Positions 13,469 to 64,000 of a stretch of 64,000 bases of DNA are shown here, one piece after another (position 1 is the stretch's first letter; each line of letters starts with the position of its first letter). The notes beneath the pieces are model-generated. The model saw only the letters and a program-made list of their open reading frames with translations, had not been told where the DNA came from and did no database searches. Both the position numbers and the translations under genes were made by a program. Source of the stretch: Acidobacteriota bacterium (GTDB lineage Bacteria > Acidobacteriota > Polarisedimenticolia > SMYD01); the NCBI GenBank assembly GCA_046757405.1, contig JBHHYE010000008.1, positions 1,944 through 65,943 on the forward strand, read 5' to 3'.

Positions 13469-13471
13469 GTC

Positions 13472-47571: not shown

Positions 47572-47587
47572 TCACCCTCCGGCCGGC

Positions 47588-48109
47588 ATGCAAAGGATCT
47601 CGAAACCGCGGACGGGCCGCTGGAGTCCCCCCGGGAGGGTCTTCTCCGGCCGGTTCCCGGCAAGACGCCGCCTGGGCGGGCCCCGCGGTCCTGGCCGGGT
47701 GGCGCCCACGGGGCAGAGGGGCTTCACGCTTCTGGAGACCTTGGTGGCCATGGTTGTTCTCAGCCTGGCCCTCATGTCGGCAGCTCGGCTCACGGTCGAG
47801 GCCGCACAGATCGTGGAGCGTGCGGTTCGGGGCACCGAGGCGCTGGCCCTTGCGTCCTCGGTGAGCGAGGTGCTGCAGGCGGCCCCGGCAGACGCTCCCT
47901 GGGTCGCTCCGGGAGGGGCGCTCGACCGGCCGGTCTCCTCCTCGGATGGCAAGTGGTTCCTGGATGCCGGCCGGTTTCAGGTCCGCTGGCGCGTCGAGAG
48001 CGCCGGGCCCTCCCTGCGACGCATTCATCTCGCCGTGGTGGACCGGTCCGCCAGCCGGGCCGCCGCGTCCATGGTCATCGAGAGTGTGCTTCTCAGGTCT
48101 TCCCGGTGA
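47588..48109 (+). CDS. Prepilin-type N-terminal cleavage/methylation domain protein (minor pilin/pseudopilin 1)
   Basis: GQRG|FTLLETLVAMVVLSLAL carries the class III signal motif with E at +5. ATG 47588 gives an unusually long 45-aa leader; the in-frame GTG 47699 (VAPTGQRG|F...) would give a typical 8-aa leader. Confidence 0.65.
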   Translation: MQRISKPRTGRWSPPGRVFSGRFPARRRLGGPRGPGRVAPTGQRGFTLLETLVAMVVLSLALMSAARLTVEAAQIVERAVRGTEALALASSVSEVLQAAPADAPWVAPGGALDRPVSSSDGKWFLDAGRFQVRWRVESAGPSLRRIHLAVVDRSASRAAASMVIESVLLRSSR

Positions 48110-48960
48110 AGCCGGACAGAACGAGACAGGCCCAGTCCGGCTCGGTGCTCCTGGAGTCCCTGGTCTCCCTCGCCCTGGGGCTGATCGTGATCGCCGTGGC
48201 CTTGCCTTTGCTCCTCTGGTCGCGCTGTGCGGCAGCCGACACGGCGGATCGCGCCGCGCGGGCCGATGGCGCGCGGCTGTCCGTGCTGCGATTGATCCGC
48301 GAATCGCGACGGGCCGGGTTCGGACTGGCGGGCGAGATGGAGGCCTTCAGGGTCGCGGAGACCGGTGACCGGGTCTCCTTGGTTTTTCTCGAAGGGGGTT
48401 TCCGTGGCGGCCTTCCCGTGTTGGAGCCCGCCCCCTCCGGGGCCCGCTCGATCGTCCTGGGCGCCCTGGGGACGCTCCGCGCCGGGGACGAGGTGGCCCT
48501 GCGGGATCGGGAGGGGCGCTTCGCCTCCGGGAGGATCGAGAGATTGACCCGGGATCCGCTCACGGTGGTTCTGGCGGCGGGTCTTCCTTTTCCGGTGTCG
48601 CCCGAGAGTGGCGCGCGCCTTTATCGCGTGTGCCGGAGGGAATGGCTTCTGGCAGGCGGCGTCTTGCGAAGGGATGGACAGCCCATCCTGGATCCTCCCG
48701 TCGGTTTCTCCCTCACCGCCGGGGCCGGCGCCCCGGACGAGGCCTTATCCTGGGTGGTCGCCAGGGGGCTTGCCGGTTCGCCGGGAAGTGTGGCCGGGCC
48801 GCTCCTGATGGCACAGCTGACGGTGGGGAGCGGCCGCCCAGGCCAAGCGGCTCCAGGATCTCCGTGCGCCGGCCATGCGCTCCGGGAAGTCCGCCTTCCG
48901 GTGGTGGTCCAGCCCCAGCATGGCTGGCCGGAGAATCTCGCTGCGAGTCCGTTGCCATGA
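48106..48960 (+). CDS. Prepilin-type minor pilin 2 (PilW-like)
   Basis: GTG start overlaps the upstream stop (GTGA). QSG|SVLLESLVSLALGLIVIAVAL has E at +5. Confidence 0.6.
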   Translation: MKPDRTRQAQSGSVLLESLVSLALGLIVIAVALPLLLWSRCAAADTADRAARADGARLSVLRLIRESRRAGFGLAGEMEAFRVAETGDRVSLVFLEGGFRGGLPVLEPAPSGARSIVLGALGTLRAGDEVALRDREGRFASGRIERLTRDPLTVVLAAGLPFPVSPESGARLYRVCRREWLLAGGVLRRDGQPILDPPVGFSLTAGAGAPDEALSWVVARGLAGSPGSVAGPLLMAQLTVGSGRPGQAAPGSPCAGHALREVRLPVVVQPQHGWPENLAASPLP

Positions 48961-50369
48961 AACCGCCGGGTGCCGCGGGTGGAGCGCTTCCGGCGGCCCT
49001 GGTCCTGCTCCTGGTCTTGACCCTGGTGGCGACGCATCTGTCGTTGATGGCGCTGACCGCCCGGCTCGGCGTTGCCCGCGCCGCGGCCGGGGACCAGAGC
49101 TACCGGATCGCGGAGGGGCTGATCCTCCTGGCGGCCACCAAGAACGCGGGGGCGCTGGCCGCTTCCCTTGCGGATGGCACGCCTCTTGGCCTGGACATGG
49201 GGGTTCTGGGTCAACCGAGGTCCGCCGGGTCGGTCCGGGTCATGGATGACCTGGATGGTGACGGGGATCCGGCCGTGGACGCCAACGGAAGACTCTTCCT
49301 GACAGCGGAAGGCCGGTTTCCAGTGGGCGGGGTGATCCGCGCCAGCCGCCGGGTTCTGAGCCAGGAGGCCCTGGTGGGCGGGTTGACTCCCTTGCCGGCC
49401 GCCATCGTGGACTGCCAGGGCCTCGCGGCGATGTGCGGGGGGACGGCCGGGTGCCCGGTCCCGGCTTCCCGCGTGGACGGCGGCTCACGGCCCGCCCTGG
49501 CGGCGACCGCCACCGGGCAAGACCGCCTCCGGCAGCGCCTGTTCCTCCTCTATCGGGAGATCCTCCGCGCCGCCGATCTCAGGTGCGGCACCGGGTCGTC
49601 AGCCTGCACCCCAGACGATGAGGACCTGAGGCGGGCCGCCAGCACCGACGTGCTCCGGGCGATGGAGGATCCGTCCGCAGATGCGCTGGGCCTTGACTCC
49701 CTGGAAATGAGCCGGCTCATTTCCAACCTCTTGATGCTGTCCGGGGATGAATCGGGAGCCGGCACCGCCGTCTGGTTCGACGGATCGGCGCGGCCGGTCA
49801 CCGATCGAGCTTTGCTGGTGGCTGCCACGGAGAATCTCGGCCGGCCGGCGGGGCATGTCCCCGATCTGGCCGGGCATCCCGTGACCCTCCTTCTGGAGGC
49901 GGGCAAACCGCTGGGTTCCGATGGCGGGCTCTGCCGCCGTCTCGCGGCCCTGTTGCCGGCCGCCATGGTCCGCGCCATGGAGATCCCGGCCGCGGCCATC
50001 GGCCCGGCTCCGGGGCCGCCTCCCGCGAGAGGCACCTTCGTTCTGAGCCGCGACCTCCGCCTGGAGCCGGGCCAGGCCCTGGCTGGAGAAGGGCTCCTGG
50101 TGGTGGAGGCCACCCTGCGGATCGATACGGGCGCGGAAATCCACTGGTCGGGCGCTCTCGTGCTCGCCGGCGGGCGCATCCAGGGCCCCGGAATCGTGCA
50201 GGTGGAAGGCGGTGTCCTGGACAGCGGCCGGCGGGCGGATGGCTCCCCGGGGCTCGACCTGTCGGCAAGCCAGTGGCAGGTGCAGGCCGACCCGGCGCGA
50301 AACGCGGCCGCCTGGGCTCCGGCCGGAACGGTTCTCCTGTCGTCGTGGGAGGAGGTGCCGGGAGAATGA
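48957..50369 (+). CDS. PilX-like minor pilin with large C-terminal domain
   Basis: ATG overlaps the upstream stop (ATGA). N-terminal hydrophobic helix MKPPGAAGGALPAALVLLLVLTLVATHLSLMAL; a ~420-aa soluble domain follows. Confidence 0.55.
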   Translation: MKPPGAAGGALPAALVLLLVLTLVATHLSLMALTARLGVARAAAGDQSYRIAEGLILLAATKNAGALAASLADGTPLGLDMGVLGQPRSAGSVRVMDDLDGDGDPAVDANGRLFLTAEGRFPVGGVIRASRRVLSQEALVGGLTPLPAAIVDCQGLAAMCGGTAGCPVPASRVDGGSRPALAATATGQDRLRQRLFLLYREILRAADLRCGTGSSACTPDDEDLRRAASTDVLRAMEDPSADALGLDSLEMSRLISNLLMLSGDESGAGTAVWFDGSARPVTDRALLVAATENLGRPAGHVPDLAGHPVTLLLEAGKPLGSDGGLCRRLAALLPAAMVRAMEIPAAAIGPAPGPPPARGTFVLSRDLRLEPGQALAGEGLLVVEATLRIDTGAEIHWSGALVLAGGRIQGPGIVQVEGGVLDSGRRADGSPGLDLSASQWQVQADPARNAAAWAPAGTVLLSSWEEVPGE

Positions 50370-50538: not shown

Positions 50539-52254
50539 ATGGCTATAAAGCTGGGCTGGATGCTAGTGAATGCCAATATCATCACCGATGCCCAGCTGCA
50601 GGAGACCCTGGAATACCAGAAGAAGAACGGCGGAAAGCTCGGCTTCAACCTGGTCAAGCTGGGTTTTTGTACGGAAGAGGAGATCACCGAGTTCCTCTCC
50701 CAGCAGTACGGCGTTCCCAGCGTCAACCTGCGCCACTTCGAGACCGATGAGGAAGTTTACAAGCTGATCCCGGCGGAAGTGGCGCAGAAATATCTCATCA
50801 TGCCCCTGTCCCGGACGGGGGCCACCCTCACCATCGCCATGGTGGATCCCACCAATGTCTTCGCCATGGATGACATCAAGTTCATGACCGGTTACAACGT
50901 GGAACCGGTGGTTGCCTCCGAGATGGCGATCAAGGAAGCCATCGAGAAGTACTACGGATCCAGCCATTCTCTCGAGCTCAAGAAGGTCATGGATGAAATG
51001 GCCGCCAGCACCACCGAGGAGCTCGAGGTTCTGGACGAGGACGAGGAGCTCGATCTCAGAAGCCTCGAACAGGCTTCCGAAGAAGCCCCCGTCGTCAAGC
51101 TGGTGAATATCATCCTGACCGATTCCATCAAACGCGGCGCCTCGGACATCCACATCGAGCCGTACGAGAAGGATTTCCGCGTCCGGTTTCGTATTGACGG
51201 CGTCTTGTACGAGATCATGCACCCACCGCTGAAACTACGGGATGCCATTCTTTCGCGGCTCAAGATCATGTCCAAGCTCGACATCTCTGAGAAGCGATTG
51301 CCGCAGGATGGGCGCATCAAGATCAAGATGAAGGTGGCGGGACGGAACAAGGAGATGGACTTCCGTGTCTCGGTGCTGCCGACTCTTTATGGTGAAAAGA
51401 TCGTCCTGCGTCTCCTCGACAAGGATAACCTGGTCCTGGACATGCGCCGCCTGGGCTTCGACGACGAATCCCTGGAAAAGTTCGAGCGCGCCATCTTTCG
51501 TCCGTATGGAATGGTCCTGGTCACGGGGCCGACGGGATCGGGGAAAACGAACACGCTGTACTCGGCCATTCATACGGTGAACACTCCCGAGACCAACATC
51601 ATGACGGCCGAGGATCCGGTGGAGTTCAACCTGCACGGGGTCAACCAGGTGCAGGTCAGAGAGGCCATCGGGCTGACCTTCGCGGCCTCTCTGCGGTCTT
51701 TCTTGCGCCAGGACCCCAACATCGTTCTGGTCGGAGAGATCCGCGACTTCGAGACCGCGGAAATCGCGGTGAAGGCGGCCTTGACCGGGCACCTGGTTCT
51801 CTCCACCTTGCACACCAATGATGCTCCCTCCACCATCAACCGCCTGATGAACATGGGGATCGAGCCGTTCATGGTTTCCACCTCGGTCCATCTGATCTGC
51901 GCACAGAGGCTCGTGCGGCGGATCTGCAAGGAGTGCAAGGAGCCGTTCCGCCTGGCCCCGCAGGCGTTGATCGATATCGGCCTGGACGAGACAGAGGCGG
52001 CGAAGCTCAAGCTCTTCAAAGGGGCAGGCTGTCAGACATGCAACAACACGGGATACAAGGGCCGTGTTGGACTGTATGAAGTCATGGAAATCGGCGAGGG
52101 TCTCAGGGAGATGATTCTTTGCGGCGCGTCGTCGGTCGAGCTCAAGAAAAAGGCCATCGAGGACGGGATGATGACCTTGCGTGCCAGCGGACTTCAAAAG
52201 ATCAAGATGGGAATCACGACGGTGGAAGAGGTCATTCGGGAGACCGTCCAGTAA
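50539..52254 (+). CDS. pilB: Type IV pilus assembly ATPase PilB (GspE family)
   Basis: N-terminal GSPII domain, Walker A VTGPTGSGKTNTLYSAI, Asp/His boxes, and the tetracysteine CKECKE...CQTCNNTGYKGR. Confidence 0.9.
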   Translation: MAIKLGWMLVNANIITDAQLQETLEYQKKNGGKLGFNLVKLGFCTEEEITEFLSQQYGVPSVNLRHFETDEEVYKLIPAEVAQKYLIMPLSRTGATLTIAMVDPTNVFAMDDIKFMTGYNVEPVVASEMAIKEAIEKYYGSSHSLELKKVMDEMAASTTEELEVLDEDEELDLRSLEQASEEAPVVKLVNIILTDSIKRGASDIHIEPYEKDFRVRFRIDGVLYEIMHPPLKLRDAILSRLKIMSKLDISEKRLPQDGRIKIKMKVAGRNKEMDFRVSVLPTLYGEKIVLRLLDKDNLVLDMRRLGFDDESLEKFERAIFRPYGMVLVTGPTGSGKTNTLYSAIHTVNTPETNIMTAEDPVEFNLHGVNQVQVREAIGLTFAASLRSFLRQDPNIVLVGEIRDFETAEIAVKAALTGHLVLSTLHTNDAPSTINRLMNMGIEPFMVSTSVHLICAQRLVRRICKECKEPFRLAPQALIDIGLDETEAAKLKLFKGAGCQTCNNTGYKGRVGLYEVMEIGEGLREMILCGASSVELKKKAIEDGMMTLRASGLQKIKMGITTVEEVIRETVQ

Positions 52255-52280: not shown

Positions 52281-53402
52281 ATGGCAATCACATTGCACCA
52301 GCTCCTGAAGACTCTCGTGGAACAGGGTGGCACTGATTTGCATGTCACCACCAATTCCCCGCCCCAGATCCGTATCAATGGCCGTCTGGTCCCCTTGCAA
52401 CTGCCGCCCATGACGGCTTCCGAGACGAAGCAGCTCATCTATTCGGTGCTCACGGATAACCAGAAGCACCGGTTCGAGGAGAACCTGGAGCTCGACCTGT
52501 CGTTCGGGGTGAAGGGGCTCGCCCGGTTCCGTGCCAACGTTTTCCTGCAACGGGGAGCCGTGTGCGCCGCCTTCCGGACCATCCCCTGGGAAATCAAGGG
52601 GTTCAAGGAGCTCGGCCTTCCCGACATCGTCGAGAAGCTCAGCGACAGGCCGCGCGGACTGGTCCTGGTGACGGGCCCGACGGGATCGGGGAAATCCACC
52701 ACGCTGGCCGCCATGCTCGACAGGATCAACACGGAGCGCAACAGCCACATCGTCACCATCGAGGATCCAGTCGAGTTTCTTCACTCCCACAAGAAATGCA
52801 TTGTCAATCAGCGCGAGCTCAATGCCGATACGTTGTCATTCAGCAACGCCCTGCGCTCTGTTCTGCGCCAGGATCCCGATGTTGTTCTCATCGGCGAGAT
52901 GCGTGATCTTGAAACCATCGAGGCGGCGCTGAGAATTGCAGAGACCGGGCACCTGACATTCGCGACTCTGCACACCAATTCCACGGTTCAGACCATCAAC
53001 CGGATCATCGACGTCTTTCCGGCGTACCAGCAAAGCCAGGTGCGGGCCCAGCTCTCCTTTGTGCTCGAGGGGATTCTCTGCCAGACGTTGCTGCCCATGT
53101 CCACCAATGCGGGGCGGGTCATGAGCATGGAAATCATGGTTCCCAACGCCGCCATCCGGAACCTCATCCGGGAAGACAAGATCCATCAGATCTACTCCAT
53201 CATGCAGACGGGGCAGGCCAAATTCGGTATGCAAACTTTCAACCAGTCGCTGGCCTCCTTGTTCCTCAAGAAGAAGATCACTCTGGAGGTCGCGCGCAGC
53301 GCGTCGTCCAAGCCCGAAGAACTCGACGACATGATCAGCCGGGGCTCCGGGCTTATCTATGAGACCCGGCCCAATGCCGCGGCCCGCAGGGCCCGGCGGT
53401 AG
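52281..53402 (+). CDS. pilT: Twitching-motility retraction ATPase PilT
   Basis: Walker A VTGPTGSGKSTT, the PilT-specific AIRNLIRE motif, ~370 aa. It lacks the long N-terminal extension of PilB. Confidence 0.9.
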   Translation: MAITLHQLLKTLVEQGGTDLHVTTNSPPQIRINGRLVPLQLPPMTASETKQLIYSVLTDNQKHRFEENLELDLSFGVKGLARFRANVFLQRGAVCAAFRTIPWEIKGFKELGLPDIVEKLSDRPRGLVLVTGPTGSGKSTTLAAMLDRINTERNSHIVTIEDPVEFLHSHKKCIVNQRELNADTLSFSNALRSVLRQDPDVVLIGEMRDLETIEAALRIAETGHLTFATLHTNSTVQTINRIIDVFPAYQQSQVRAQLSFVLEGILCQTLLPMSTNAGRVMSMEIMVPNAAIRNLIREDKIHQIYSIMQTGQAKFGMQTFNQSLASLFLKKKITLEVARSASSKPEELDDMISRGSGLIYETRPNAAARRARR

Positions 53403-53435: not shown

Positions 53436-54638
53436 ATGCCGACCTATTCATGGAAAGGGCGCAACCCCGCAGGTGTCATGCAGGAAGGCGTCCTGTCCGC
53501 GGACAGCAAGGAAGCGCTGGTGGGCATGCTGCGCAAGCAGCAAATCCTGGTCACGGCCGTGACCGAGAAGGGGAAGGAATTCGCCCTGCCCAAGTTCGGG
53601 GGCGGAGTCAAGCAAAAAGAGATCGCCATCTTCACCCGGCAGTTCAGTGTCATGATCGATGCAGGTTTGCCACTGGTCCAGTGCTTGGAAATCCTGGCTG
53701 GACAGCAGGTCAACCGGGTCTTCAAGAAGGTTCTGGTCAATGTCCGGCAGGATGTGGAAGCCGGGGCTACCTTGGCCGATTCCCTACGGAAACATCCGAA
53801 AGTCTTCAACGCTCTGTACTCCAACATGGTGGCCGCCGGCGAGACCGGCGGTATTCTTGACACGATCCTGCAGCGCCTTTCCACCTACATTGAGAAGATT
53901 GTCAAGCTGCGCGGCGCGGTGCGCTCAGCCTCCGTCTATCCGGTCGCCGTGATTACCATCGCCGTGGGGGTGGTGACGATCATTCTGTGGAGAGTCATCC
54001 CGACTTTCGCGACTCTCTTCGAGGGGCTAGGCGCCCAGCTGCCGCTGCCGACGCGGATCACCATCGCCATTTCCGAGTTCCTGGGACGATGGATGCCGGT
54101 GCTGGTTCTCATGGTCGGCCTGCTCATTTTCGCGATCTTCCGTTACCACAAGACCCATTCGGGCAGGCGGTGGATCGACCGCTTGGTCCTCAAGATACCC
54201 GTGCTCGGCTCCCTGTTGCGAAAGATCGCCGTGGCGCGATTTTGCCGGACTCTCGGGACGTTGATCTCATCGGGTGTTCCGATCCTCGAGGGGCTGGAAG
54301 TCACGGCCAAGACGGCCGGCAACTCGATCGTCGAGGATGCCATCATGGCGACCCGGAAGAGCGTGGAGGAGGGGAAGAATCTGGCGGTGCCCCTGGGAGA
54401 CACCAAGGTCTTCCCTTCCATGGTCGTGCAGATGATCGCCGTGGGCGAACAGACGGGCGCCATGGACGCCATGCTGGCCAAGATCGCGGACTTTTACGAG
54501 GACGAAGTGGACGAGGCAGTGGCCAATCTTCTTGCCCTGATGGAACCGGTGATGATAGTCTTCCTGGGGACGATCATCGGCGGCATCGTGATTTCCATGT
54601 ATATGCCGCTGTTCTCGCTGATCAACAAGATCGGGTGA
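53436..54638 (+). CDS. pilC: Type IV pilus inner-membrane platform protein PilC (GspF family)
   Basis: Two GspF repeats (FTRQFSVMIDAGLPLVQCLEIL... and ...FCRTLGTLISSGVPILEGLEV), ~400 aa. Confidence 0.9.
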   Translation: MPTYSWKGRNPAGVMQEGVLSADSKEALVGMLRKQQILVTAVTEKGKEFALPKFGGGVKQKEIAIFTRQFSVMIDAGLPLVQCLEILAGQQVNRVFKKVLVNVRQDVEAGATLADSLRKHPKVFNALYSNMVAAGETGGILDTILQRLSTYIEKIVKLRGAVRSASVYPVAVITIAVGVVTIILWRVIPTFATLFEGLGAQLPLPTRITIAISEFLGRWMPVLVLMVGLLIFAIFRYHKTHSGRRWIDRLVLKIPVLGSLLRKIAVARFCRTLGTLISSGVPILEGLEVTAKTAGNSIVEDAIMATRKSVEEGKNLAVPLGDTKVFPSMVVQMIAVGEQTGAMDAMLAKIADFYEDEVDEAVANLLALMEPVMIVFLGTIIGGIVISMYMPLFSLINKIG

Positions 54639-54751: not shown

Positions 54752-56446
54752 ATGACAGACACCCTCTACAAAATCCGGCTCTTGATGGTGGTCCGGGTGG
54801 TGGCGGTGACGGCCCTGCTCGTGGTGGCCTTCCTGGTAGAGTTATGGTTCCAGCCGGCACGCTCGCTTCGCCCTCTTTATATTCTCACCGCGGCCACTTA
54901 CTCCCTCACCATCATCTATGGATTGCTCTATGCGACTCTCCGCGAGCAGCAGGTCTTCATCCATTTACAGCTGATCGGCGACATCCTGGCCAGTTCGGCT
55001 TTTGTCTACATAACGGGCGGGACGACCAGCCCTTTTTCATTTCTCTATGTTCCGGTCATTCTCGCCGCGGGCATGCTGCTCTACCAGCGGGGCGCGTACA
55101 CCTTCGCCTGTCTCTCCTCCCTGGCCTACGGAACCCTGGTTGTGGCCATCTTGACGGGAGTGCTCCCGGTGTATCCCCCCGGGTCGATGCAGATCTCCGC
55201 AGCGGAGTTCAAGCGCGCCAGTTTTGCACTTATGGTCCACTTCCTGGGGTTCGGACTGGTGGCCATCCTGGCCTCGGCCCTGTCGGAAAGTCTCCGTCGG
55301 ACCGGCGAGGAGCTGGGAACCACCCGCGAGAATCTGGAAGACCTGCAGGTGTTCAATGCCCTGATCATTGATTCGGTGAATTCGGGCCTGATCACCGCCG
55401 ATCCGGCCGGCCGGATTACCTTCCTGAACCGCGCCGCCCGGGAAATAACGGGGCTCATGGAATCATTCGCCCGGGAGCGATCCATTCAGGATCTTTTTGA
55501 TTTGCCGGATGATTTCATCGAACGCCTCAACCGATGCCTGGCGCGGGCCCGCCGTTTTCGATTCGAGGTGCGCTACCAGGTAGCGGCGGGCGTCAACCGG
55601 ATCCTTGGATTCACCGCGGGACTGCTTCGCGACAAGGAGCGCATGCCACTGGGCTATATCTTCACCTTCCAGGATCTCACGGAGATCAAGGCTCTGGAAA
55701 AAGAAGTGCTGGTACGTGAGAGAATGGCAGCCGTGGGAGAGATGGCGGCCGGGATGGCCCATGAGCTGCGGAATCCACTGGCATCCATGAGTGGTTCGGT
55801 ACAAGTTCTCGGAACCGGTATTCCCACGGAGCGGCGCGACCAGATGGAGCTCCTGGAAATCATCCAGAGGGAGTCCCTGCGCCTTGACCAGGTGTTGAAA
55901 GATTTTCTTTCCTTCGCCCGGCCGCGGCCTTTCAATCCAGAATTGACCGATCTGGTCGGTCTCCTGACCGATCTTGTCCGCTTGCTCAAGAATTCTCCAG
56001 GATTGCTTCCCGCCCACCAGGTCGTGACCACCTTTGCATGCCAGTCGCTTCCCTGTCACGTGGATGTCGATCGCATCAAACAGGTTTTCTGGAACCTTGC
56101 CAGTAATGCTCTGCGGGCCATGCCCGCGGGCGGACGCCTGGAGATCTCCGCCGGCCCCGCCCGGGATGGCATGGTGGCCTTCTCGTTCACGGACACGGGC
56201 CACGGGATGACCGCCGAAGAGATGAGGAATTTTTTCAGGCCGTTCCGCTCCCGGTTTGACGGGGGGACCGGGCTCGGAACCGCCATCGTCTACCGTATTG
56301 TGCAGGAGCACAACGGACGCACGACCGTTGACTCGGAACCGGGGCGCGGCACCAAGGTCGTGGTGTCGATCCCGGCGCAGCCCGTAGGGACGACCGATTA
56401 TCGTGAGGAGAATCGATGGGAGCAATTGGTCGAGCACGTGTCCTGA
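54752..56446 (+). CDS. pilS: Sensor histidine kinase PilS-like (polytopic N-terminus, PAS, HisKA, HATPase_c)
   Basis: Six N-terminal TM helices, then the H-box MAAGMAHELRNPL and N/G boxes (GGRLEISAG..., GTGLGTAIV). It is adjacent and co-oriented with pilR. Confidence 0.8.
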   Translation: MTDTLYKIRLLMVVRVVAVTALLVVAFLVELWFQPARSLRPLYILTAATYSLTIIYGLLYATLREQQVFIHLQLIGDILASSAFVYITGGTTSPFSFLYVPVILAAGMLLYQRGAYTFACLSSLAYGTLVVAILTGVLPVYPPGSMQISAAEFKRASFALMVHFLGFGLVAILASALSESLRRTGEELGTTRENLEDLQVFNALIIDSVNSGLITADPAGRITFLNRAAREITGLMESFARERSIQDLFDLPDDFIERLNRCLARARRFRFEVRYQVAAGVNRILGFTAGLLRDKERMPLGYIFTFQDLTEIKALEKEVLVRERMAAVGEMAAGMAHELRNPLASMSGSVQVLGTGIPTERRDQMELLEIIQRESLRLDQVLKDFLSFARPRPFNPELTDLVGLLTDLVRLLKNSPGLLPAHQVVTTFACQSLPCHVDVDRIKQVFWNLASNALRAMPAGGRLEISAGPARDGMVAFSFTDTGHGMTAEEMRNFFRPFRSRFDGGTGLGTAIVYRIVQEHNGRTTVDSEPGRGTKVVVSIPAQPVGTTDYREENRWEQLVEHVS

Positions 56447-57876
56447 TCGTCGACGACGAGAAGTCGATGCGGGAATTGCTGGCGATTGCCCTGGAGCCTG
56501 ACCAGCTCGAGGTGAAGGCGGTTGCCTCGGTGGCCGATGCCCGGAGGGCGATGCAGGAAAGTCCTTTTGACCTGGTGGTGTCTGACATCGCCATGCCCGG
56601 AGAAAGCGGCATGGAGCTCCTGGCCGAGCTCCGCCGGTCCAGCCCCCAGCTCCCTGTCATTCTCATCACCGCCTACGCATCCATGGAGTCGGCGAAACGC
56701 GCTTTTTCATTGGGTGTTTATGATTGCGTCGACAAGGGCGCGAGCTTCAACATCGAGGAATTCCGCGCGACGGTGCGCAACGCCATCCAGTCGCGCCAGG
56801 TGCTTCAAGAGAACCAGATCCTCAAGAAGCAGCTCAAGAACCGGCATGGACCCGGGACCCTGGTGGCCCGCTCCCGGAAAATGCAAGCCGTCTGCGATCT
56901 CATTGATCGGGTGGCGCCGACGCGCTCCACGCTGTTGATCACCGGCGAGAGCGGCACAGGCAAGGAAGTGGTGGCCCGGACCATTCATTATTCCGGCCCA
57001 GGGGCCGAGGCCCCCTTTGTCTCCATTAACTGCGGCGCCATGCCCTCGGAATTGCTGGAGAGCGAGCTGTTCGGCCACATGAAGGGTGCGTTCACCGGCG
57101 CCCTGGCGGCCAAGCAAGGATTGTTTCAAGCGGCCCGCGAGGGTACGGTCTTTCTGGATGAGATCGGAGAGATGCCGCCGTCAGCGCAGGTGAGACTCCT
57201 CCGGGTCTTGCAGGAACGGACCATCCGGATGGTGGGTGGGACCGAGGAGATCGAAGTCGAGGCGCGGGTGGTGGCGGCCACCAACGCAGACCTGGCCGCC
57301 AAGGTCGAGCAGGGTGCCTTCCGGGCGGACCTTTACTACCGGATCAATGTCATTCCCATTCATCTACCGCCTCTCCGTGAGCGCCTGGAAGACATCTCGG
57401 CTCTTGCCCAGCTCTTCGTCCGGAGATTCGCCCGCGAGCTCGGCCGTGAGGCGCCTGAGTTTTCGCCGGAGTCCCTGCGCGCGCTGGAAGAGTACGCCTG
57501 GCCCGGGAACGTGCGCGAGCTGGAGAATGCGATCCAGCGGGCCGTGACCCTGGCCGGTGAGGGGGCCATCACGCCGGATGTGCTGCCGGCGGCGATCACG
57601 GAAAAAGACGCCGTGGGCGCTCCACCAGGAGAAGGGCGCCTGGAGACCGTCTCGCCCACGCTGATCCCGGAAGGACAGAACCTGGACCAGTACCTGGGAA
57701 CCATCAAGGCCTCGCTCATGGAGCGGGCCCTGGAGGAGTCCAACCATGTCCAGGTGGAGGCGGCGCGGCGCCTGGGCATGTCGTTCCGGTCGTTCCGGTA
57801 CTTCGCCAAGCAGCTGGGAGTTCACGTTCATCCGGAGAGCCGTGAGCGAGAGGGCGGACGAGGGTCCAAAGGGTGA
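56416..57876 (+). CDS. pilR: Sigma54-dependent response regulator PilR (NtrC family)
   Basis: REC domain (VLIVDDE...D at the phospho-site), AAA+ sigma54-activator core (GESGTGKE, GAFRADLYYRINVIPIHLPPLRER), and a C-terminal Fis-type HTH. Confidence 0.9.
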   Translation: MGAIGRARVLIVDDEKSMRELLAIALEPDQLEVKAVASVADARRAMQESPFDLVVSDIAMPGESGMELLAELRRSSPQLPVILITAYASMESAKRAFSLGVYDCVDKGASFNIEEFRATVRNAIQSRQVLQENQILKKQLKNRHGPGTLVARSRKMQAVCDLIDRVAPTRSTLLITGESGTGKEVVARTIHYSGPGAEAPFVSINCGAMPSELLESELFGHMKGAFTGALAAKQGLFQAAREGTVFLDEIGEMPPSAQVRLLRVLQERTIRMVGGTEEIEVEARVVAATNADLAAKVEQGAFRADLYYRINVIPIHLPPLRERLEDISALAQLFVRRFARELGREAPEFSPESLRALEEYAWPGNVRELENAIQRAVTLAGEGAITPDVLPAAITEKDAVGAPPGEGRLETVSPTLIPEGQNLDQYLGTIKASLMERALEESNHVQVEAARRLGMSFRSFRYFAKQLGVHVHPESREREGGRGSKG

Positions 57877-60347
57877 CGGTCACTTCCGGCAGGGGCCGGT
57901 TCATGGCCCCGCCGATCCTGGGCGTTACCCTGGCGGCCTTCGCCGGAGCCCTGAGCGGCGGCACCCTCTATTTTCGAGACCTGATTCTTCTTCACCGTCC
58001 TGTCCGCGTGGCCATCCGCCGCCTGTGGAGAGCGGGAATCGTGCCTCTCTGGGATCCCTGGCAGGATGGTGGGCGCGTTCTCCTCGCCAACCCGAACCAC
58101 CAGGTTCTCCATCCGACGGCTCTCCTGGACCTCTTCTTCTCGGTGGACACCGCCCTTGCCGCCGCCATGGTCGTGCAGGTTTTCCTGGCCGGCTGGGGAC
58201 TGGCCCTGTTCCTCAAGGACCGGGGCGCGACCCCCGCCGCGGCCCGGATGGGAGGGATGACCTACGCGCTTTCCGGCCCCGTGCTGTCGCTGGGCAATCT
58301 TCCCAACCTGATGGGGTCGATTGCCTGGGTGCCCCTGGTGCTCTGGGCCGGCTGCCGGGCGTTCCGATCGCCGGGGCTCTGGGTCCCGCTCGCCGCGTTC
58401 CTGGCCGCGATTCCGGCCTTGAGCGGCGGCGTCGAATCTCTCGGAGTGGCCGCGCTGATCCTCGGGGCTTTGGCCCTCTGGCACCCGGACCGGTTGCGGC
58501 GGCTCGGTATCACCGCGAGCATCACCGTGGGGGGACTCATGCTGGCGGCGGTGCAGCTTCTTCCCGCCTGGGAGACCTTGCGCGACTCCGAGCGCGGGCT
58601 GGGATTCCAGCCGGACCAGATCTTTTACTGGTCCTTTTCTCCCATTCGTTTCCTGGAAGCCGCCATCCCCCGGCTCTGGGGCCTGCCCACCGACCGGGCC
58701 GCCTGGTGGGGCGAGGCGGTGTTCGACGGGGGATGGCCTCTCATCCTCTCGACGTACCTGGGGGCCGGTGTGCTGGTCCTGGCCGGGGTTGGCGGCAGCG
58801 TGGCCATCGGACGTTTCGTCGGGCGCGCCGGACGCTTCCGGCGAATGGCCGCGGCGCGGTTGCCGGACGAGATGTGGCAGTCCACGCTGGTCGCAGGATG
58901 GACCGGGACCGGTCTCATGCTGCTGGCTCTGGGACGTCACAATCCGCTCCTGACGCTCTGGGGCGGCCTGCCCAGGGCAGGGGGGGCCATTCTTCGTTAT
59001 CCGGAGCGACTGGTCCCGCTGGCTGTGCTGGCCGTTGCGGTGGCTGCCGCAGCCGGCTGGCAGGTGCTGGCGGCGGCGAGACAGGAAAAGGAGGCTCTGC
59101 CACGGAGCTGGTGGATGGCGGCCGCCACCATGGTCCTCCTGCTCGGTCTGGCCGGAGCCATGGCGCGGTGGGCCGGCCTCCATCCCGTCGGACTGTACCA
59201 GCCGGCGCTTTCGGCGCGGGCTGCGGCTGCCCTGGTCCTCCCCGTGGTCAAGGCCGTGGCAGGGCTCTGGGTGGTGGCCGTGTGTGTCTGGATGGCCGGC
59301 CGGCCGCGGCGCGAATCTCTTGCCGCGGGCCTTCTGTTCCTTGCCCTGTCGGCGGATCTCCTGGCTGCGAACGGAGCACTGAATCCCACCATGGATCCAG
59401 GGCTGATGGCGTCCGAGCCCGCGGCGGCCAGGTTCCTTGCCTCGCTGGAGAGCAGCGATCGTCCGGAGGAGAGGCCCTGTGTCGTGCGTGGTGTCGAGCC
59501 CCGTGGGCCGTGGGCCGCGGCTCCGTCCGGCGAGGCGGCCGTCTGGTCCCGCCACAGCCTGGCTCTCAGGATCCCGGAGGAGTTCGGGTTGGCGACCTCC
59601 TTGACCCGGGACGTGGACCGCTCCACCCCCCTGGGCAACGCGTATCTGCGTGTCGCCCACCGGCAAGCCACGGGTGCATCCCGGGAGCGGCTGGCGGATC
59701 GTGCCGGAGCCTCCTGGGAGCTGGGATTCGATCCCGGGCCGTCCCCGATTCCCGCGGGCGCTCCCTTCCACCAGAAGGTCCTGCCCGGGGCTCCGGCCGT
59801 GGTCCTCTGGCCGCGGCCCGACGCGGCGCCGCGGATCAGCATCGTGCCCCGCGGGATCGCCCTGGGAAGGCTTGCCGCGCCGGGAGGGCTTCAACGGCTC
59901 CTGGCCCGGCTCGGCGACCCCGGCTCCGACCCGCGGCGCGAGGTTTTTCTCTCAGGGCGCCAGTCCCGCCCCGTGGAGGGACACTGGGAGCCCGCGGCGG
60001 GACGCGCCGACCTGGTCGTGGAGACGCCGCTCCACCTCGAGATCGCCACGCAGGCGCCCGGCCCCGGGGTTCTGGTGGTCCGCGATTCACTGGCGCGCGG
60101 CTGGCAGGCGCGTCTGGACGGGCGCCGGGTCGAGGTTGTGCGCGCTGACCTGGCCTGGCGGGGAGTCGTCCTGCCGGCCGGCCTCCACCGGGTAAGCTTC
60201 GTGTACCGCCAGCCGGGCCTGGTTGCCGGGACCGCGTGCAGCGCGATGGCCCTGGCGGTTCTCCTGGGCGTGGCCGGCCGATCGGTACGCCGTCACGGGC
60301 GGTGGCAGGCAGCCCGCCAGGCCGAGAACGGCCGGAGGGCCGCTTGA
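57873..60347 (+). CDS. YfhO-family-like polytopic membrane protein (GT-C-fold glycosyltransferase candidate)
   Basis: About 13 N-terminal TM helices and a ~300-aa extracytoplasmic C-terminal domain. It ends GWQARLDGRRVEVVRADLAWRGVVLPAGLHRVSFVYRQPG plus a terminal TM helix, closely resembling the conserved YfhO C-terminus (..W.A.VDGK.V...AN.AFRGV.LPAG.H.V.F.Y.P). Confidence 0.6.
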   Translation: MTVTSGRGRFMAPPILGVTLAAFAGALSGGTLYFRDLILLHRPVRVAIRRLWRAGIVPLWDPWQDGGRVLLANPNHQVLHPTALLDLFFSVDTALAAAMVVQVFLAGWGLALFLKDRGATPAAARMGGMTYALSGPVLSLGNLPNLMGSIAWVPLVLWAGCRAFRSPGLWVPLAAFLAAIPALSGGVESLGVAALILGALALWHPDRLRRLGITASITVGGLMLAAVQLLPAWETLRDSERGLGFQPDQIFYWSFSPIRFLEAAIPRLWGLPTDRAAWWGEAVFDGGWPLILSTYLGAGVLVLAGVGGSVAIGRFVGRAGRFRRMAAARLPDEMWQSTLVAGWTGTGLMLLALGRHNPLLTLWGGLPRAGGAILRYPERLVPLAVLAVAVAAAAGWQVLAAARQEKEALPRSWWMAAATMVLLLGLAGAMARWAGLHPVGLYQPALSARAAAALVLPVVKAVAGLWVVAVCVWMAGRPRRESLAAGLLFLALSADLLAANGALNPTMDPGLMASEPAAARFLASLESSDRPEERPCVVRGVEPRGPWAAAPSGEAAVWSRHSLALRIPEEFGLATSLTRDVDRSTPLGNAYLRVAHRQATGASRERLADRAGASWELGFDPGPSPIPAGAPFHQKVLPGAPAVVLWPRPDAAPRISIVPRGIALGRLAAPGGLQRLLARLGDPGSDPRREVFLSGRQSRPVEGHWEPAAGRADLVVETPLHLEIATQAPGPGVLVVRDSLARGWQARLDGRRVEVVRADLAWRGVVLPAGLHRVSFVYRQPGLVAGTACSAMALAVLLGVAGRSVRRHGRWQAARQAENGRRAA

Positions 60348-62098
60348 GAAGGTGGGCCACGATTCTGGTTCTTGCCGCGTTAGGATGCGCCGCTCTCTCT
60401 GCGGGAAGCGGCGCCATACGCTCGTTTGACTTCGGCTGGCACCTGCGCGCCGGAGAGTCGATTCTCGAGCATCATGGGCGGCCTCCTCGGGCCGACCCCA
60501 TTGCTTATACCAGCGGATCCGCCGAGTGGATCGACCACGAGTGGCTTTTCCAGCTGATCCTGGCTCTCCTGGTCCAGGCGGGAGGTCTGAAGGGGGCGTG
60601 GCTGCTGAAACAGACTCTCATCCTGGTCGGGGTGCTGGTTCCGGCCGCCTGGCTGTTGCGGATGAATCACTCTCCCTTGGCGGTGGCCTCCTTGGGGGTT
60701 CTGGCTCTGGCGGGCGGCCGGTTCCGTTTTTCTGCGCGGCCGGAGATGGTCGCCGTCGCCTTCTTGCCCGCTCTCCTGATCGTCCTGGTGGTCGCCCACC
60801 GACGCGCACGGCGGGGAGCGCGGATGGTCCCACTCCTGGCGCTGGTCCCGATCCTGGTGCTGGGCTGGGTGAACCTGCATCTTTCCGCCTTGCTGGCAGC
60901 TCTCCTGGTTGTCGTCTTCGCCCTGGCCGTGCTCATCGAGCAACGGGGAACCGATCGGATCAGCCGGCCGTTCCTGGTGACGGCTGTTCTGGCGGGGGCC
61001 GCTCTCCTGGCCAACCCGTACGGGACCCGTCTCCTGGCGGTTCCTTTTTCCATTCATACAGCCCTCACCAGCGGGGGATTGACCAACCCCGAGTGGGGAA
61101 GTGCACTGCACAGCCGTTTCGGGCTTTTCTGGACGGTCTTGCTCGCCGCCGGCACCGGCCTCCTCCTGGCCCGCCGGGCAGGCAGGAGAATGGTCCTGCC
61201 GGTGGCGGCCTGTGCGGCGGTTCTGGCTGTCGCCGGGGGTGCTGCCGCTCGCACCCTGAGTTGCTTCTACATGGCCTTGCCGGTCTGCGCCCTCGCCGTC
61301 ACCACCGGCAAGCAGTCCGGTGCGGCACAGGAAGTGCGGGCGGGATGGCGTGGCCGGGTTTCGGCCGGGGCGGCCGTCGGTCTTCCGCTCCTGGCAGCGG
61401 GTCTCTTCATGCTCTTTCCCGGGGGAGCTCCAGGGGGAGTCGGACTGGCCCCGGGACGCTTTCCCGAGGCGATGGCGTCCACCTACCAGGAGATGGGACT
61501 GCGCGGCCCGATCTACAATCCGGTCCGTTTCGGTGGATATCTTTCCTGGGCCCTGGCGCCCCAGAAGGTGTTCATCGATGGACGCAACGAGGTCCACGGA
61601 GAGCTCCTCTCCCGCCTGGCGGCCTGCCGGATGGCGACCCGACTGGAGTGCTGGGATCGGCTCGTGGAGCGATGGGATACTCAGGCGGCGTTCGTGGAAT
61701 ATGATCCACGCCGCATTCCGGTCCGCCTGCCTGATGGACGCTTCATCTCACGCAGCGTGTCATCGGTCTACTTCAGGCGGGATTCCTGGGCGCTGGTGGA
61801 CTGGGATGACGTCGCCATGCTTCTGGTCCGGCGAGGCGGCCGGAACGCCGAGCGGATCGACGGCCAGGAGGACCGGGTACTGATGCCCGAGGATCCAGAA
61901 TATTTTTACCGGGAGCTCAGAGCGGGGCGGATCGACTGGCGGGAAGCCCAGCGAGAGGTGAGCCGGCGGCTGGCCCGGCATCCAGATTCCCGGAAGGCCC
62001 GCCTGCTCCAGGAGATCGTGCGCCGGCTGGAGGTTGAGGTGAATGAGGGGAAAAATCGTCCACCGGTGGTCCGGGTGACGGGCAGTGGCGGGGACTGA
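60344..62098 (+). CDS. Polytopic membrane protein with acidic first-loop motif (GT-C-like glycosyltransferase candidate) and ~190-aa C-terminal soluble domain
   Basis: TTG 60344 overlaps the upstream stop. TM1 is followed by a periplasmic-loop motif SAEWIDHEWLFQ (GT-C-like DxD/ExD position), then 10 or more TM helices and an Arg/Glu-rich soluble C-terminus. Confidence 0.55.
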   Translation: MRRWATILVLAALGCAALSAGSGAIRSFDFGWHLRAGESILEHHGRPPRADPIAYTSGSAEWIDHEWLFQLILALLVQAGGLKGAWLLKQTLILVGVLVPAAWLLRMNHSPLAVASLGVLALAGGRFRFSARPEMVAVAFLPALLIVLVVAHRRARRGARMVPLLALVPILVLGWVNLHLSALLAALLVVVFALAVLIEQRGTDRISRPFLVTAVLAGAALLANPYGTRLLAVPFSIHTALTSGGLTNPEWGSALHSRFGLFWTVLLAAGTGLLLARRAGRRMVLPVAACAAVLAVAGGAAARTLSCFYMALPVCALAVTTGKQSGAAQEVRAGWRGRVSAGAAVGLPLLAAGLFMLFPGGAPGGVGLAPGRFPEAMASTYQEMGLRGPIYNPVRFGGYLSWALAPQKVFIDGRNEVHGELLSRLAACRMATRLECWDRLVERWDTQAAFVEYDPRRIPVRLPDGRFISRSVSSVYFRRDSWALVDWDDVAMLLVRRGGRNAERIDGQEDRVLMPEDPEYFYRELRAGRIDWREAQREVSRRLARHPDSRKARLLQEIVRRLEVEVNEGKNRPPVVRVTGSGGD

Positions 62099-62259
62099 CA
62101 TCGAGTGTCCACAAAGCTGACAATATCTGGCAGGTCCGGGAGCCCTCGGGAGTCTCGCCTGGGAATGGGCCCAGGCAGACAAGCACTCGTAAAATGTAAG
62201 TTACTGAATACAATGTACTTATAATTCTAACCTGCTCTCCCCGGCCCGCTCGGGTCGGC

Positions 62260-62275
62260 TGGCATTCCCTTTGCG
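62260..62275 (+). promoter_or_regulatory. Sigma54 (-24/-12) promoter candidate for pilA
   Basis: cTGGCATtccctTTGCg matches TGGCAC-N5-TTGCW, ~37 nt upstream of the pilA start, with an AAGGAGG RBS at 62297-62303. An AT-rich stretch at 62190-62235 is a possible UAS/IHF region. Confidence 0.55.
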
Positions 62276-62311
62276 ACAGGGTCAAGCCAAACTCTAAAGG
62301 AGGTGACTGTG

Positions 62312-62785
62312 GTGAACAGAAAGCAAGAAGGATTCACACTGATCGAGCTGCTGATTGTCGTGGCGATTATCGGTATCATCGCCGCCATCGCCATCCCGAA
62401 CCTGCTCAATGCCATCGATCGCGGCAAGCAGAAGCGGAGCATGGCTGATCTTCGGTCCGTCGGAACAGCCGTGGAAGAGTATGCCATTGACAACTCTTTC
62501 TATCCCAACGTGGCTGCCGAGGCCAACATCGCCGGTTCCGCCGTGGAGACCTCGATCGAGCCGGTCTATATCCGCAATGCTCCGACCGAGGATGGGTGGG
62601 GCTTCAACATGCGGTATATCAGCGACACGACCGTCTACACGGTTGGTTCCCTGGCCAAGGATGGTGCGGCGGGCGGCAATCTCACCATCAACAGCACCAA
62701 CGGTCGGACCACCGACTTTGACTGCGACATCATTTTCTCCAACGGCTCCTTTGTCCAGTGGCCGGAAGGAACGCAGGCTGACTGA
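62312..62785 (+). CDS. pilA: Type IV major pilin PilA (T4a, GspG-like fold)
   Basis: A short leader precedes G|FTLIELLIVVAIIGIIAAIAIPN (E+5). GTG starts are possible at 62303, 62309 or 62312, downstream of a strong RBS. C-terminal disulfide-pair Cys (DFDCD). Confidence 0.85.
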   Translation: MNRKQEGFTLIELLIVVAIIGIIAAIAIPNLLNAIDRGKQKRSMADLRSVGTAVEEYAIDNSFYPNVAAEANIAGSAVETSIEPVYIRNAPTEDGWGFNMRYISDTTVYTVGSLAKDGAAGGNLTINSTNGRTTDFDCDIIFSNGSFVQWPEGTQAD

Positions 62786-62806
62786 GCCTGATAGGCCGTG
62801 AGGAAT

Positions 62807-62850
62807 AGCGGCGGTGGCCTCGAGGGAGTCCACCGCCGCTTTCCCTTTCT
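62807..62850 (+). terminator. Intrinsic terminator-like hairpin after pilA
   Basis: 11-bp GC-rich stem AGCGGCGGTGG/CCACCGCCGCT with a 12-nt loop, followed by TTCCCTTTCT. Confidence 0.5.
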
Positions 62851-62879
62851 CGCGCCAGGGATCCAGGAGGGCCGCCAGG

Positions 62880-63335
62880 ATGTTCGAGACCCGGGGGAAC
62901 AATCATCGTGCGGAGGGGTTCACCCTCATCGAGCTTCTGGTCGCGGTCACCATCATCGGGATCGTTGCCACCATCGCGGTGCCGGCGCTGAACACGGCCA
63001 TGGAGAAATCCCGCCAGCGCGCGACCGTCGCCAACATGCGCGCCGTGGGGAACGCGCTCCAGATCTACCAGAACGATCTGACGTCGTTCCCCCCGGGCAC
63101 GCTGGATATCAACCAGCTGGCGGTCGCCCTCCTGGGAGTCACCAAACGGCCGATCCCGGTACACGATTCATGGGGCCGGGATTTCGACTATCGTTCGGAC
63201 GGGCTGGTGGAGTATTCAGTGGAGAGCTTTGGCCGCGACGGGGTGCCTGGAGCCGACATTTCTCCCGCGCAAGCCAATAACTTTGACCTGGATATCGTCC
63301 TGAGCGACGGTATCTTCGTCGCCTCGGTCAACTGA
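62880..63335 (+). CDS. Second type IV pilin (PilA paralogue, GspG-like)
   Basis: MFETRGNNHRAEG|FTLIELLVAVTIIGIVATIAVP (E+5). It is paralogous to pilA (SMADLRSVGTAVEEY vs TVANMRAVGNALQIY). Start at ATG 62880. Confidence 0.8.
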   Translation: MFETRGNNHRAEGFTLIELLVAVTIIGIVATIAVPALNTAMEKSRQRATVANMRAVGNALQIYQNDLTSFPPGTLDINQLAVALLGVTKRPIPVHDSWGRDFDYRSDGLVEYSVESFGRDGVPGADISPAQANNFDLDIVLSDGIFVASVN

Positions 63336-63393
63336 CCGGAGTCCGGGCGGCTCCGCCGGCCGCCGGTCGTGACCGAAACCGGGGAACCGGGCG

Positions 63394-64000
63394 CATGGTC
63401 GCCGACGCCGGAGAGAAACCTTCTCTCCTCTTTTTTCTTCTTTGCGGTTTACTGGGCACGCTCTGGGTCGCTCCGCCGGAGATTTACCCCGGGGCCGCGT
63501 TTCTCGCCGCCTTGCTGCTTCCCGCCCTGGGGGGAACGCTCCTCTGGACCGGCTGGTTGCCGGACCGCGGCCAGAGATGGTTCCTGGCGGCGCTCGTCTT
63601 GCCGCTGGCGATCTCCCACCATTTCGCCCTGGACAACGGTGGATCTCTGCACAGCATGATCCGGTTGGCCGGGGCTCTGATCCTGTTTGCGGCCGCACGG
63701 CGGGTCTCCCCGGCGGAGGCGCGTGGCTTGCTGATGCTCCTGGCGGGAGGGATGGCGGTTCTTTCCCTCCATGGTCTCTGGCAGTACCTGGTGGGCTTCG
63801 ATCGCCTTCTGGCGGACCGGGGCCTGCCGGCCGGCGTGGTGGAACGGCTGCAGACCTACCGGGTCTTCGGCCGCTCGGTTCTGCCATCGGTGTTCGCGTC
63901 CCTGCTTTTCCTGGCTCTTCCGGTCTCTGTGGGCCTTGCTTCCGCCGCCCGTGGTCTGGCCCGGCTCGCCTGGGGAATGGCCGCCCTTCTCTCCGGCGTG
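63394..64000 (+). CDS. O-antigen ligase (Wzy_C) family-like membrane protein, partial (candidate pilin O-oligosaccharyltransferase, PglL/TfpO-like)
   Basis: ATG 63394 opens a frame without stops to the window end (not in the track because it has no stop). Multiple TM helices, and RVFGRSVLPSVFASLLFLALPV resembles the Wzy_C motif R..G...NPN..A..L....P. Confidence 0.5.

Follow-up and report, generated by a model that had tools for sequence, protein, structure and literature searches.

The final 17 kb of a 64,000-nucleotide stretch of DNA from an Acidobacteriota metagenome-assembled genome (MAG; contig JBHHYE010000008.1, hereafter the window, with a GC content of ~65%) form one plus-strand gene array that encodes a type IVa pilus, and within it two large membrane proteins are encoded between the regulator gene pilR and the pilin genes. 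We are firm that two enzymes of predicted GT-C fold are encoded in the pilSR operon, that two Wzy_C enzymes and cytoplasmic glycosyltransferases are encoded after the pilins, and that this arrangement is conserved. By analogy with characterized systems, we read the locus as a set of type IVa pilus genes into which a module for periplasmic glycosylation, probably of the pilin, is built, a reading to which we give an even chance. It is based on confidently predicted GT-C folds with conserved Asp residues in the first loop; on start/stop overlaps that couple both genes to pilR, together with sigma-54-type promoters before the pilin genes; on synteny in ~24 loci while the GT-C proteins themselves have diverged; on a Wzy_C gene confirmed for the source genome on an overlapping contig; on syntenic pilins that have a Ser/Thr-richer loop and mostly a C-terminal Thr; and on precedents in TfpO/TfpM, the Acinetobacter pilA-tfpO-pglL tandem, TfpW, and PgfM1/PgtC2. 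An earlier, model-made reading of the same letters (the original prediction) had proposed an undescribed pilin-glycosylation arrangement here, and its interpretation is, overall, partly supported.

Two predicted GT-C proteins between pilR and the pilins

The two inserted proteins correspond to NCBI locus tags ACE5HD_03770 and ACE5HD_03775. The first is 824 residues long if read from a GTG at 57873, or 814 from the ATG at 57903 that NCBI calls. The original prediction had called it YfhO-like, and the Pfam YfhO model (PF09586) does match above its cut-off (30.0 bits versus 28.5), but only over the C-terminal 50 residues (profile positions 786–835); its homologues commonly bear PF09586, and some are named YfhO. 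The orthologue in the related locus L002 (related loci carry L numbers here) scores 26.6 bits, under the cut-off, and matches to the NCBIfam models PgfM1 and PgfM2 are weak and C-terminal (~18 bits versus cut-offs of 1400–1500). An AlphaFold model built with 51 homologues has a mean predicted local distance difference test score (pLDDT) of 92.9 and a predicted template modelling score (pTM) of 0.93, and a Foldseek search of the PDB with this model returned AftD (7.8e-9) and ArnT (1.9e-6), then AglB, EmbC and AftA. Just after the first transmembrane helix (TM1) lie an invariant D26 and, in at least 90% of sequences, R25. The model makes us confident of a GT-C fold, and we take the protein to be a divergent YfhO-family member. 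On L087 (7001–12430) a distant YfhO homologue adjoins a PMT_2 GT-C gene and a GT2-GtrA fusion, far from pilus genes; the three form a textbook three-component glycosylation set, of which no partner was seen at the pilus-linked loci.

The second protein, given as 585 residues in the original prediction, has 584 (one codon fewer) and starts at a TTG. It has no significant Pfam or NCBIfam match, and PDB sequence-profile searches with the alignments of all three membrane proteins (the two described here and the Wzy_C protein below) returned nothing relevant. Its predicted structure (pLDDT 93.1, pTM 0.91) has the polytopic fold common to the PMT, OST, ArnT and Emb enzymes, with PDB matches to Pmt4 (18.9), AglB (17.3), STT3B (16.1), AftA (15.3), DPY19 (14.9), ArnT (14.4) and PglB (14.3), at sequence identities to its structural matches of 7–15%; 3 of 20 structural matches (GAB1 and two PIG-U chains) are glycosylphosphatidylinositol-transamidase subunits, not transferases. 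Four residues of the first extracytoplasmic loop, between TM1 (residues 3–20) and TM2, are found in at least 90% of 53 homologues: D29, D51, H65 and E66. On the strength of the model we are confident that this protein too is a GT-C-fold glycosyltransferase. The top structural matches are GT-C enzymes for both proteins, so that the GT-C-like character first proposed for the pair is upheld by the predicted structures and the conserved loop-1 Asp, although the 584-residue protein belongs to no named sequence family.

That unnamed family is very large. In a library of 1.84 billion proteins its profile collects 41,387 cluster representatives at E <= 1e-3, of which 18,503 remain at E <= 1e-30. In the members sampled, the membrane part is covered by no Pfam model, and TPR repeats are frequent at the C-terminus; the 584-residue protein itself has no TPR Pfam match. 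Aligned by hhalign, the profiles of the two GT-C families match weakly (E 1.8e-4, probability 48%) in the N-terminal loop-1 region, which is compatible with distant common ancestry.

Operon structure and promoters

The genes from pilS onward are tightly packed. pilS and pilR overlap by 31 nucleotides (nt), the pilR stop codon overlaps the GTG of the 824-residue open reading frame (ORF; GTGA, the NCBI start being an ATG 26 nt downstream), and the TTG start of the 584-residue ORF overlaps the stop of its predecessor (TTGA). Given these overlaps, the simplest reading is that a pilS-pilR operon extends through both membrane-protein genes as its last members.

The pilin appears to be transcribed separately. 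A scan of all 64 kb for the sigma-54 −24/−12 core pattern TGGCAY-N5-TTGC gave two matches, where 0.25 would be expected, and both lie ahead of pilin-type genes. The element before pilin 1 is kept in 15 of 16 related loci, 63–73 nt 5′ of the mature-pilin codon, with constant GG and GC elements and varying spacers. Pilin 1 thus has a promoter of its own, which is presumably PilR-dependent, like the pilin promoters of Myxococcus, Geobacter and Pseudomonas. Because the other match, a perfect one, lies directly 5′ of the minor-pilin ORFs, it suggests that these are under sigma-54/PilR control as well as pilin 1.

Folding of the RNA from 62780 to 62885 places a hairpin 3′ of pilin 1, an 11-bp GC stem followed by UUUCCCUUUCU (z −2.08), which a simple terminator scan did not call and which may be a partial terminator. 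A second terminator-like hairpin with a T-run (63410–63438) lies within codons 6–15 of the Wzy_C ORF; we set it aside as a terminator, since it more likely reflects the Leu/Phe codons of the first membrane helix, although it may alternatively attenuate read-through from the pilins.

The pilins and the genes downstream

Both pilins have the marks of type IVa pilins: a short leader, a G↓FTLIE cleavage/methylation motif and a hydrophobic N-terminal helix. Pilin 1 matches the Pfam models N_methyl (2.7e-10) and T2SSG (1.4e-7), its N-terminus matches the Myxococcus PilA model, and orthologues occupy the same position in most syntenic relatives at 54–86% identity (43% in L043). Among these orthologues the N-terminal helices are near-identical and the C-terminal pattern ...DFxCD...QWP(Q/E)GTQ... 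is conserved, while the middle is a loop of variable sequence in which Ser, Thr, Gly and Asn abound; in pilin 1 of the window it includes KDGAAGGNLTINSTNGRTTDF. Ser plus Thr make up 30% of the loop in syntenic loci versus 21% in related pilins that have no GT-C or Wzy_C gene beside them, and Ser, Thr, Gly, Asn and Gln together 58% versus 36%, a comparison among related, non-independent sequences whose nominal P values overstate the case. Twelve of 15 related syntenic pilin-1 orthologues (11 distinct sequences) end in ...QT, 10 of those in ...QGTQT, with a C-terminal Thr; in L002 and L004 the end is ...GTQSD. The variable loop of pilin 1 (62650–62720, residues ~117–131) also holds two N-x-S/T sequons, NLT and NST. 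We rejected N-glycosylation at these sites: no oligosaccharyltransferase-type enzyme is evident, and orthologues do not conserve the sequons, which are absent from those of L002 and L004. Pilin 2 has a clear orthologue in L002, a separate match in L030 and an uncertain one in L043; it is not part of the main syntenic clade and is confined to the subclade of the window and a few other loci.

The ORF that begins 59 nt after pilin 2 is cut by the end of the window. An O-antigen-ligase (Wzy_C)-like gene had been proposed at this place, and although the 202-residue fragment has no Pfam or NCBIfam match, and hence no Wzy_C inside the window, the proposal holds once the gene is completed. A 27-kb contig, L088, found by a look-up with pilin 2, agrees with the last 3,933 bases of the window without a mismatch and reaches 9.3 kb past it. 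On L088 the first Wzy_C protein is 569 residues long and carries Wzy_C (PF04932) at residues 196–329 (E 1.6e-15) with the conserved His motif of the superfamily, RFAHNTYLQ; the domain begins ~7 codons before the window ends, and thus lies essentially outside it. The fragment is also 51% identical to the N-terminus of an L002 protein with Wzy_C at residues 182–313. Profile searches of the three membrane proteins thus gave a marginal YfhO match, a Wzy_C match after completion, and none for the 584-residue protein. Wzy_C is the only domain found in the first Wzy_C protein at E <= 0.01; its length falls within the 550–600 residues of PglL-type enzymes. PglL_A is, as we take it, the Pfam family-specific domain of PglL-type enzymes beyond Wzy_C.

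A second Wzy_C gene comes next on L088 (655 residues, E 2.3e-20), followed by a GT2-GT9 fusion, an AMP-binding/CapK-like gene, a DUF362 gene and GT4 genes. The fusion (L088, 6998–9055), directly 3′ of the two Wzy_C genes, is a 685-residue protein that joins a GT2-like part to a GT9 part of the heptosyltransferase family. In relatives, the array often goes on with AsnB, Wzx, GT4, GT2 and WecA-type genes.

Conservation of the gene order

A scan of species-representative genomes with the 584-residue family gave 80 loci, against which all window proteins were compared by tblastn. The order pilBTCSR, YfhO-like gene, gene of the 584-residue type, pilin, Wzy_C and Wzy_C (with TPR), or contig-truncated parts of it, is present in ~24 related loci (~19 of the 80, together with L001, L002 and L084–L086), as the original prediction had proposed to check. 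Because the same order recurs in these loci, the arrangement is not due to chance. Across them PilB is 78–88% identical, the two GT-C proteins only ~30–50%, and pilin 1 43–86%. The locus titles point to Polarisedimenticolia-type Acidobacteriota. At L006, L007 and L021 the full Acidobacteriota-type syntenic cluster occurs in MAGs labelled Patescibacteria, Verrucomicrobiia and Binatia, probably through binning or labelling errors; L007 and L021 have a PilB of 78–80% identity, and L006, a fragment of 5.8 kb, contains no pilB.

Outside this lineage the picture is different. In Thermoanaerobaculia, Holophagae and others the homologue of the 584-residue protein stands alone, and the distant YfhO homologue lies far from pilus genes, so that linkage to the pilus characterizes one deep lineage and neither GT-C family as a whole. 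In several Thermoanaerobaculia loci a pilin lies ~9.4 kb from the homologue, which we rejected as a functional link, since unrelated housekeeping genes lie between (a Wzt ABC transporter, a binding protein, a methylase and SLT). Nor did we retain the idea of a single pilus-linked clade within the 584-residue family: a neighbour-joining tree puts the syntenic loci in three groups, and with its long branches we draw no conclusion from it.

The pilus array and other features of the window

The array begins after a shikimate-kinase-like ORF and runs, on the plus strand, through minor pilins, pilB, pilT, pilC, pilS, pilR, the two GT-C genes, pilin 1, pilin 2 and the cut ORF (Table 1). All ORFs described in the original prediction are present where it placed them and on that strand, including the two large membrane-protein genes between pilR and the pilin genes. 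The pil genes were named from two sources, precomputed Pfam matches on L001 (a 6.9-kb Logan contig from the same sample as L088, found by a look-up with pilR and 100% identical) and the annotated genes of L002 (84–85% identical). The PilW-like and PilX-like ORFs have no Pfam support, and their prepilin-like N-termini were read from the translations and a frame plot of GC content at third codon positions (GC3).

Table 1. Features of the pilus array and their positions in the window
Feature	Position	Strand	Basis
Sigma-54-type −24/−12 promoter, TGGCATCCGGTTTGC / TGGCATCCGGTTTGCT	47557..47571	+	perfect pattern match just 5′ of first prepilin-type ORF
Three minor-pilin-like ORFs (GFTLLE prepilin, PilW-like, PilX-like)	47588..50369	+	N_methyl match on 47543-48106; translations, GC3 frame plot
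pilB, assembly ATPase	50539..52254	+	84% identity to L002 gene with MshEN, T2SSE
pilT, retraction ATPase	52281..53402	+	85% identity to L002 T2SSE gene
pilC, platform protein	53436..54638	+	T2SSF_N, T2SSF on identical L001 protein
pilS, sensor kinase	54752..56446	+	6TM_PilS, PAS, HisKA, HATPase_c on identical L001 protein
pilR, sigma-54 activator	56416..57876	+	Response_reg, Sigma54_activat, HTH_8 on identical L001 protein
Predicted GT-C glycosyltransferase, divergent YfhO family	57873..60347	+	marginal Pfam match, homologues, model, Foldseek
Predicted GT-C-fold glycosyltransferase, unnamed family, 584 residues, TTG start	60344..62098	+	model, conserved loop-1 residues, profile search
Sigma-54-type −24/−12 promoter of pilin 1, TGGCATTCCCTTTGC	62260..62274	+	second of the two pattern matches in the window
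Pilin 1, likely major type IVa pilin	62303..62785	+	start 62303, 62309 or 62312; mature 150 residues from FTLIELL
GC-rich hairpin and T-rich run after pilin 1, possible partial terminator	62807..62850	+	RNA fold of 62780-62885
Pilin 2, GspG-like, 151-residue precursor	62880..63335	+	N_methyl 7e-9, T2SSG 1.3e-8
Wzy_C gene, first 202 codons of 569, cut by window end	63395..64000	+	completed on identical contig L088

Elsewhere in the window, a separate polysaccharide-export locus (1926–18101) lies 40 kb upstream of the GT-C genes. It encodes a GDSL-like protein, a Wzx-type flippase, an NAD epimerase/dehydratase, an initiating transferase with Glycos_transf_4 and CoA_binding_3, a beta-barrel porin, a Wza-type Poly_export protein, a Wzc-type Wzz/GNVR/ATPase, a DUF374 protein and GT4. 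A protein of 1,175 residues at 25038–28565 contains TPR repeats together with six FG-GAP-like repeats and an ASPIC/UnbV domain. A GNIWRFP motif, which we take to be typical of sodium:neurotransmitter symporters, can be read in the translations of a tandem pair of paralogous polytopic ORFs (43918–45369 and 45530–46939).

Discussion

The glycosylation of pilins influences how pili behave, how cells adhere and how they resist phages. To our knowledge, nearly all known cases come from a few Proteobacteria, with one enzyme encoded after pilA. If the locus described here is a glycosylation module, undecaprenyl-linked sugars would be built by cytoplasmic enzymes, and in the periplasm a Wzy_C enzyme would move an undecaprenyl-diphosphate-linked glycan onto Ser/Thr of the pilin, in the manner of TfpO and PglL. 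The two GT-C enzymes would add single sugars from undecaprenyl-phosphate donors, either directly to the Ser/Thr-rich surface loop of the pilin, like TfpW and the YfhO-type PgfM1 and PgtC2, or to the glycan already attached, with a conserved Asp of the first periplasmic loop as the likely catalytic residue of each. Co-transcription with pilSR would tie the GT-C enzymes to pilus expression. We infer the pilin as acceptor by analogy with these systems.

It is informative to set the locus beside those systems. The genes for TfpO and TfpM (Pseudomonas, Acinetobacter, Moraxella) lie directly 3′ of the pilin gene, and the acceptor is a C-terminal Ser/Thr of the pilin (PMC9829042); in Acinetobacter M2 the tandem pilA-tfpO-pglL places two Wzy_C genes after the pilin gene (PMC3735195). 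Likewise, a Wzy_C gene immediately 3′ of the pilins and a second one next to it are present here, and most related syntenic pilins end in Thr, the acceptor type of TfpM and TfpO. There are also differences. The Wzy_C proteins of this locus, at 569 and 655 residues, are larger than TfpO/TfpM at ~420–470 (PMC9829042) and cannot be assigned at the sequence level to either family, the host belongs to the phylum Acidobacteriota, and a pilin is GspG-like. Moreover, the pilins of the window end in ...GTQAD (pilin 1) and ...ASVN (pilin 2), and because its subclade has no C-terminal Ser/Thr, a strict TfpO/TfpM analogy is weakened there.

The GT-C genes find their closest parallels elsewhere. TfpW, a GT-C pilin D-arabinofuranosyltransferase encoded beside pilA in Pseudomonas Pa5196/PA7, has a predicted C-terminal TPR (bioRxiv 10.1101/2020.04.19.049825). 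Compared with TfpW by its description, our locus shares a GT-C membrane enzyme, encoded next to pilA and bearing an acidic motif in its periplasmic loop 1, and many relatives of the 584-residue protein have C-terminal TPR repeats as well. However, tfpW lies 3′ of pilA, whereas here two GT-C genes lie upstream of it in the pilSR operon, the 584-residue protein itself lacks a TPR Pfam match, and no DprE1/DprE2-type arabinose genes were seen among the scanned ORFs. In streptococci, extracytoplasmic proteins are modified by YfhO-type GT-C enzymes of the Pgf and GtrB/PgtC2 systems: PgfM1 and PgtC2 attach O-glycans to protein regions rich in Ser/Thr, and within the pgf operon two GT-C genes lie beside the genes of its substrate adhesins (PMC12041528), a layout echoed here along with the weak C-terminal similarity to PgfM1/PgfM2. 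Those hosts are Gram-positive, that similarity is far under the model cut-offs, and the GT-A partner (PgfS or GtrB) encoded alongside there was not recognized among the proteins scanned here. The YfhO proteins of Bacillus and Listeria, which function in teichoic-acid glycosylation (PMC5836110), share PF09586 and the GT-C fold with our first protein, but a teichoic-acid acceptor is absent from the diderm Acidobacteriota and the Pfam match is marginal and C-terminal.

Several observations weigh against a module dedicated to the pilin. The homologues of the 584-residue protein are mostly not beside pilus genes, and the more distant YfhO homologue of L087 occurs in a non-pilus context. Among the window and L088 proteins that were scanned, which are not all of the ORFs, we recognized neither a GtrB/CsbB-type polyprenyl-phosphate sugar synthase nor the small flippase partner of a YfhO three-component system, although such partners can lie elsewhere. 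The Wzy_C genes open a generic glycan-assembly locus, and their products match no O-oligosaccharyltransferase-specific model, orthologues giving weak NCBIfam matches to PEP_O_lig_1 and RfaL. To these must be added the ends of the window's pilins and the non-independence of the sequences in the loop comparison.

The main alternative is that the GT-C and Wzy_C genes serve an envelope glycan of the O-antigen, lipopolysaccharide-core or exopolysaccharide type, co-located and perhaps co-regulated with the pilus, with enzymes that polymerize or ligate a glycan bound to lipid or polymer, or decorate it, but leave the pilin untouched. We consider this unlikely, although it deserves serious thought: the two Wzy_C genes, the GT2-GT9 fusion and GT4 after the pilins, with the WecA-type, Wzx and AsnB genes added in relatives, make up a Wzx/Wzy-type set; YfhO was first characterized as a teichoic-acid glycosylating protein (PMC5836110); the 584-residue family is huge and both GT-C families are found mostly in non-pilus contexts; and the pilins of the window do not end in Ser/Thr. 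Yet the pilin genes separate the GT-C genes from that glycan locus, and the translational coupling of the GT-C genes is to pilR, not to the glycan genes. Their exact position is held across relatives in which they are just 30–50% identical, and a complete Wzx/Wza/Wzc locus exists apart from this one, at 2–18 kb. Even a shared glycan locus would leave a pilin acceptor possible, since the glycan loci used by known O-oligosaccharyltransferases also serve O-antigen or capsule (PMC9829042).

It is also worth considering that the GT-C proteins might act on another pilus-related or PilSR-controlled target and not specifically on the major pilin. Minor pilins, the lipid carrier pool or, in a general O-glycosylation, other proteins of the periplasm or outer membrane would be candidates. 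The operon link is indeed to pilSR and not to the pilin transcription unit, PglL, the second tandem Wzy_C enzyme of Acinetobacter, is a general glycosylase (PMC3735195), and the YfhO-type PgtC2 and PgfM1 modify many membrane proteins (PMC12041528). However, no alternative substrate candidate is visible and the strongest conserved neighbour is the pilin gene, which leaves this improbable in our view. Least probable, and in our judgement scarcely to be expected, is that the adjacency is an inherited order in one lineage without functional coupling, or that one GT-C protein, or each of the two, is a scaffold without catalytic activity. All syntenic loci do come from one class-level lineage, so that their repetition does not amount to independent origins; against this, the start/stop overlaps persist, as does the gene order even where the proteins have diverged to ~33% identity, and the acidic residues of loop 1 are invariant or nearly so.

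Returning to pilin glycosylation, what is new here must be drawn narrowly. Genes for pilin-glycosylating enzymes that flank pilA are already well known, and the arrangement was called undescribed in the original prediction; this does not extend to a pilin gene with tandem Wzy_C genes (PMC3735195) or to TfpW (bioRxiv 10.1101/2020.04.19.049825), but it does stand for two GT-C genes in the pilSR operon upstream of pilA, as we found no description in the literature of GT-C genes between pilR and pilA, co-transcribed with pilSR, nor of this combination. None of the computational results that the original prediction had named as counting against it was found. A fuller version of the idea, in which the pilin of this lineage receives a composite decoration from a Wzy_C O-oligosaccharyltransferase, a YfhO-like GT-C enzyme and a GT-C enzyme of the unnamed family, with the GT-C genes expressed from the pilSR operon, is tentative, and we would sooner doubt than assume it.

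If it were true, it would provide the first functional handle on the unnamed GT-C family as protein-directed glycosyltransferases. The locus suggests that an abundant, uncultured lineage of sediments and soils hard-wires two extra membrane glycosyltransferases into its pilus regulatory operon, and the neighbouring pilin offers a concrete candidate substrate for a very large GT-C-fold family that has neither a curated model nor a known function.

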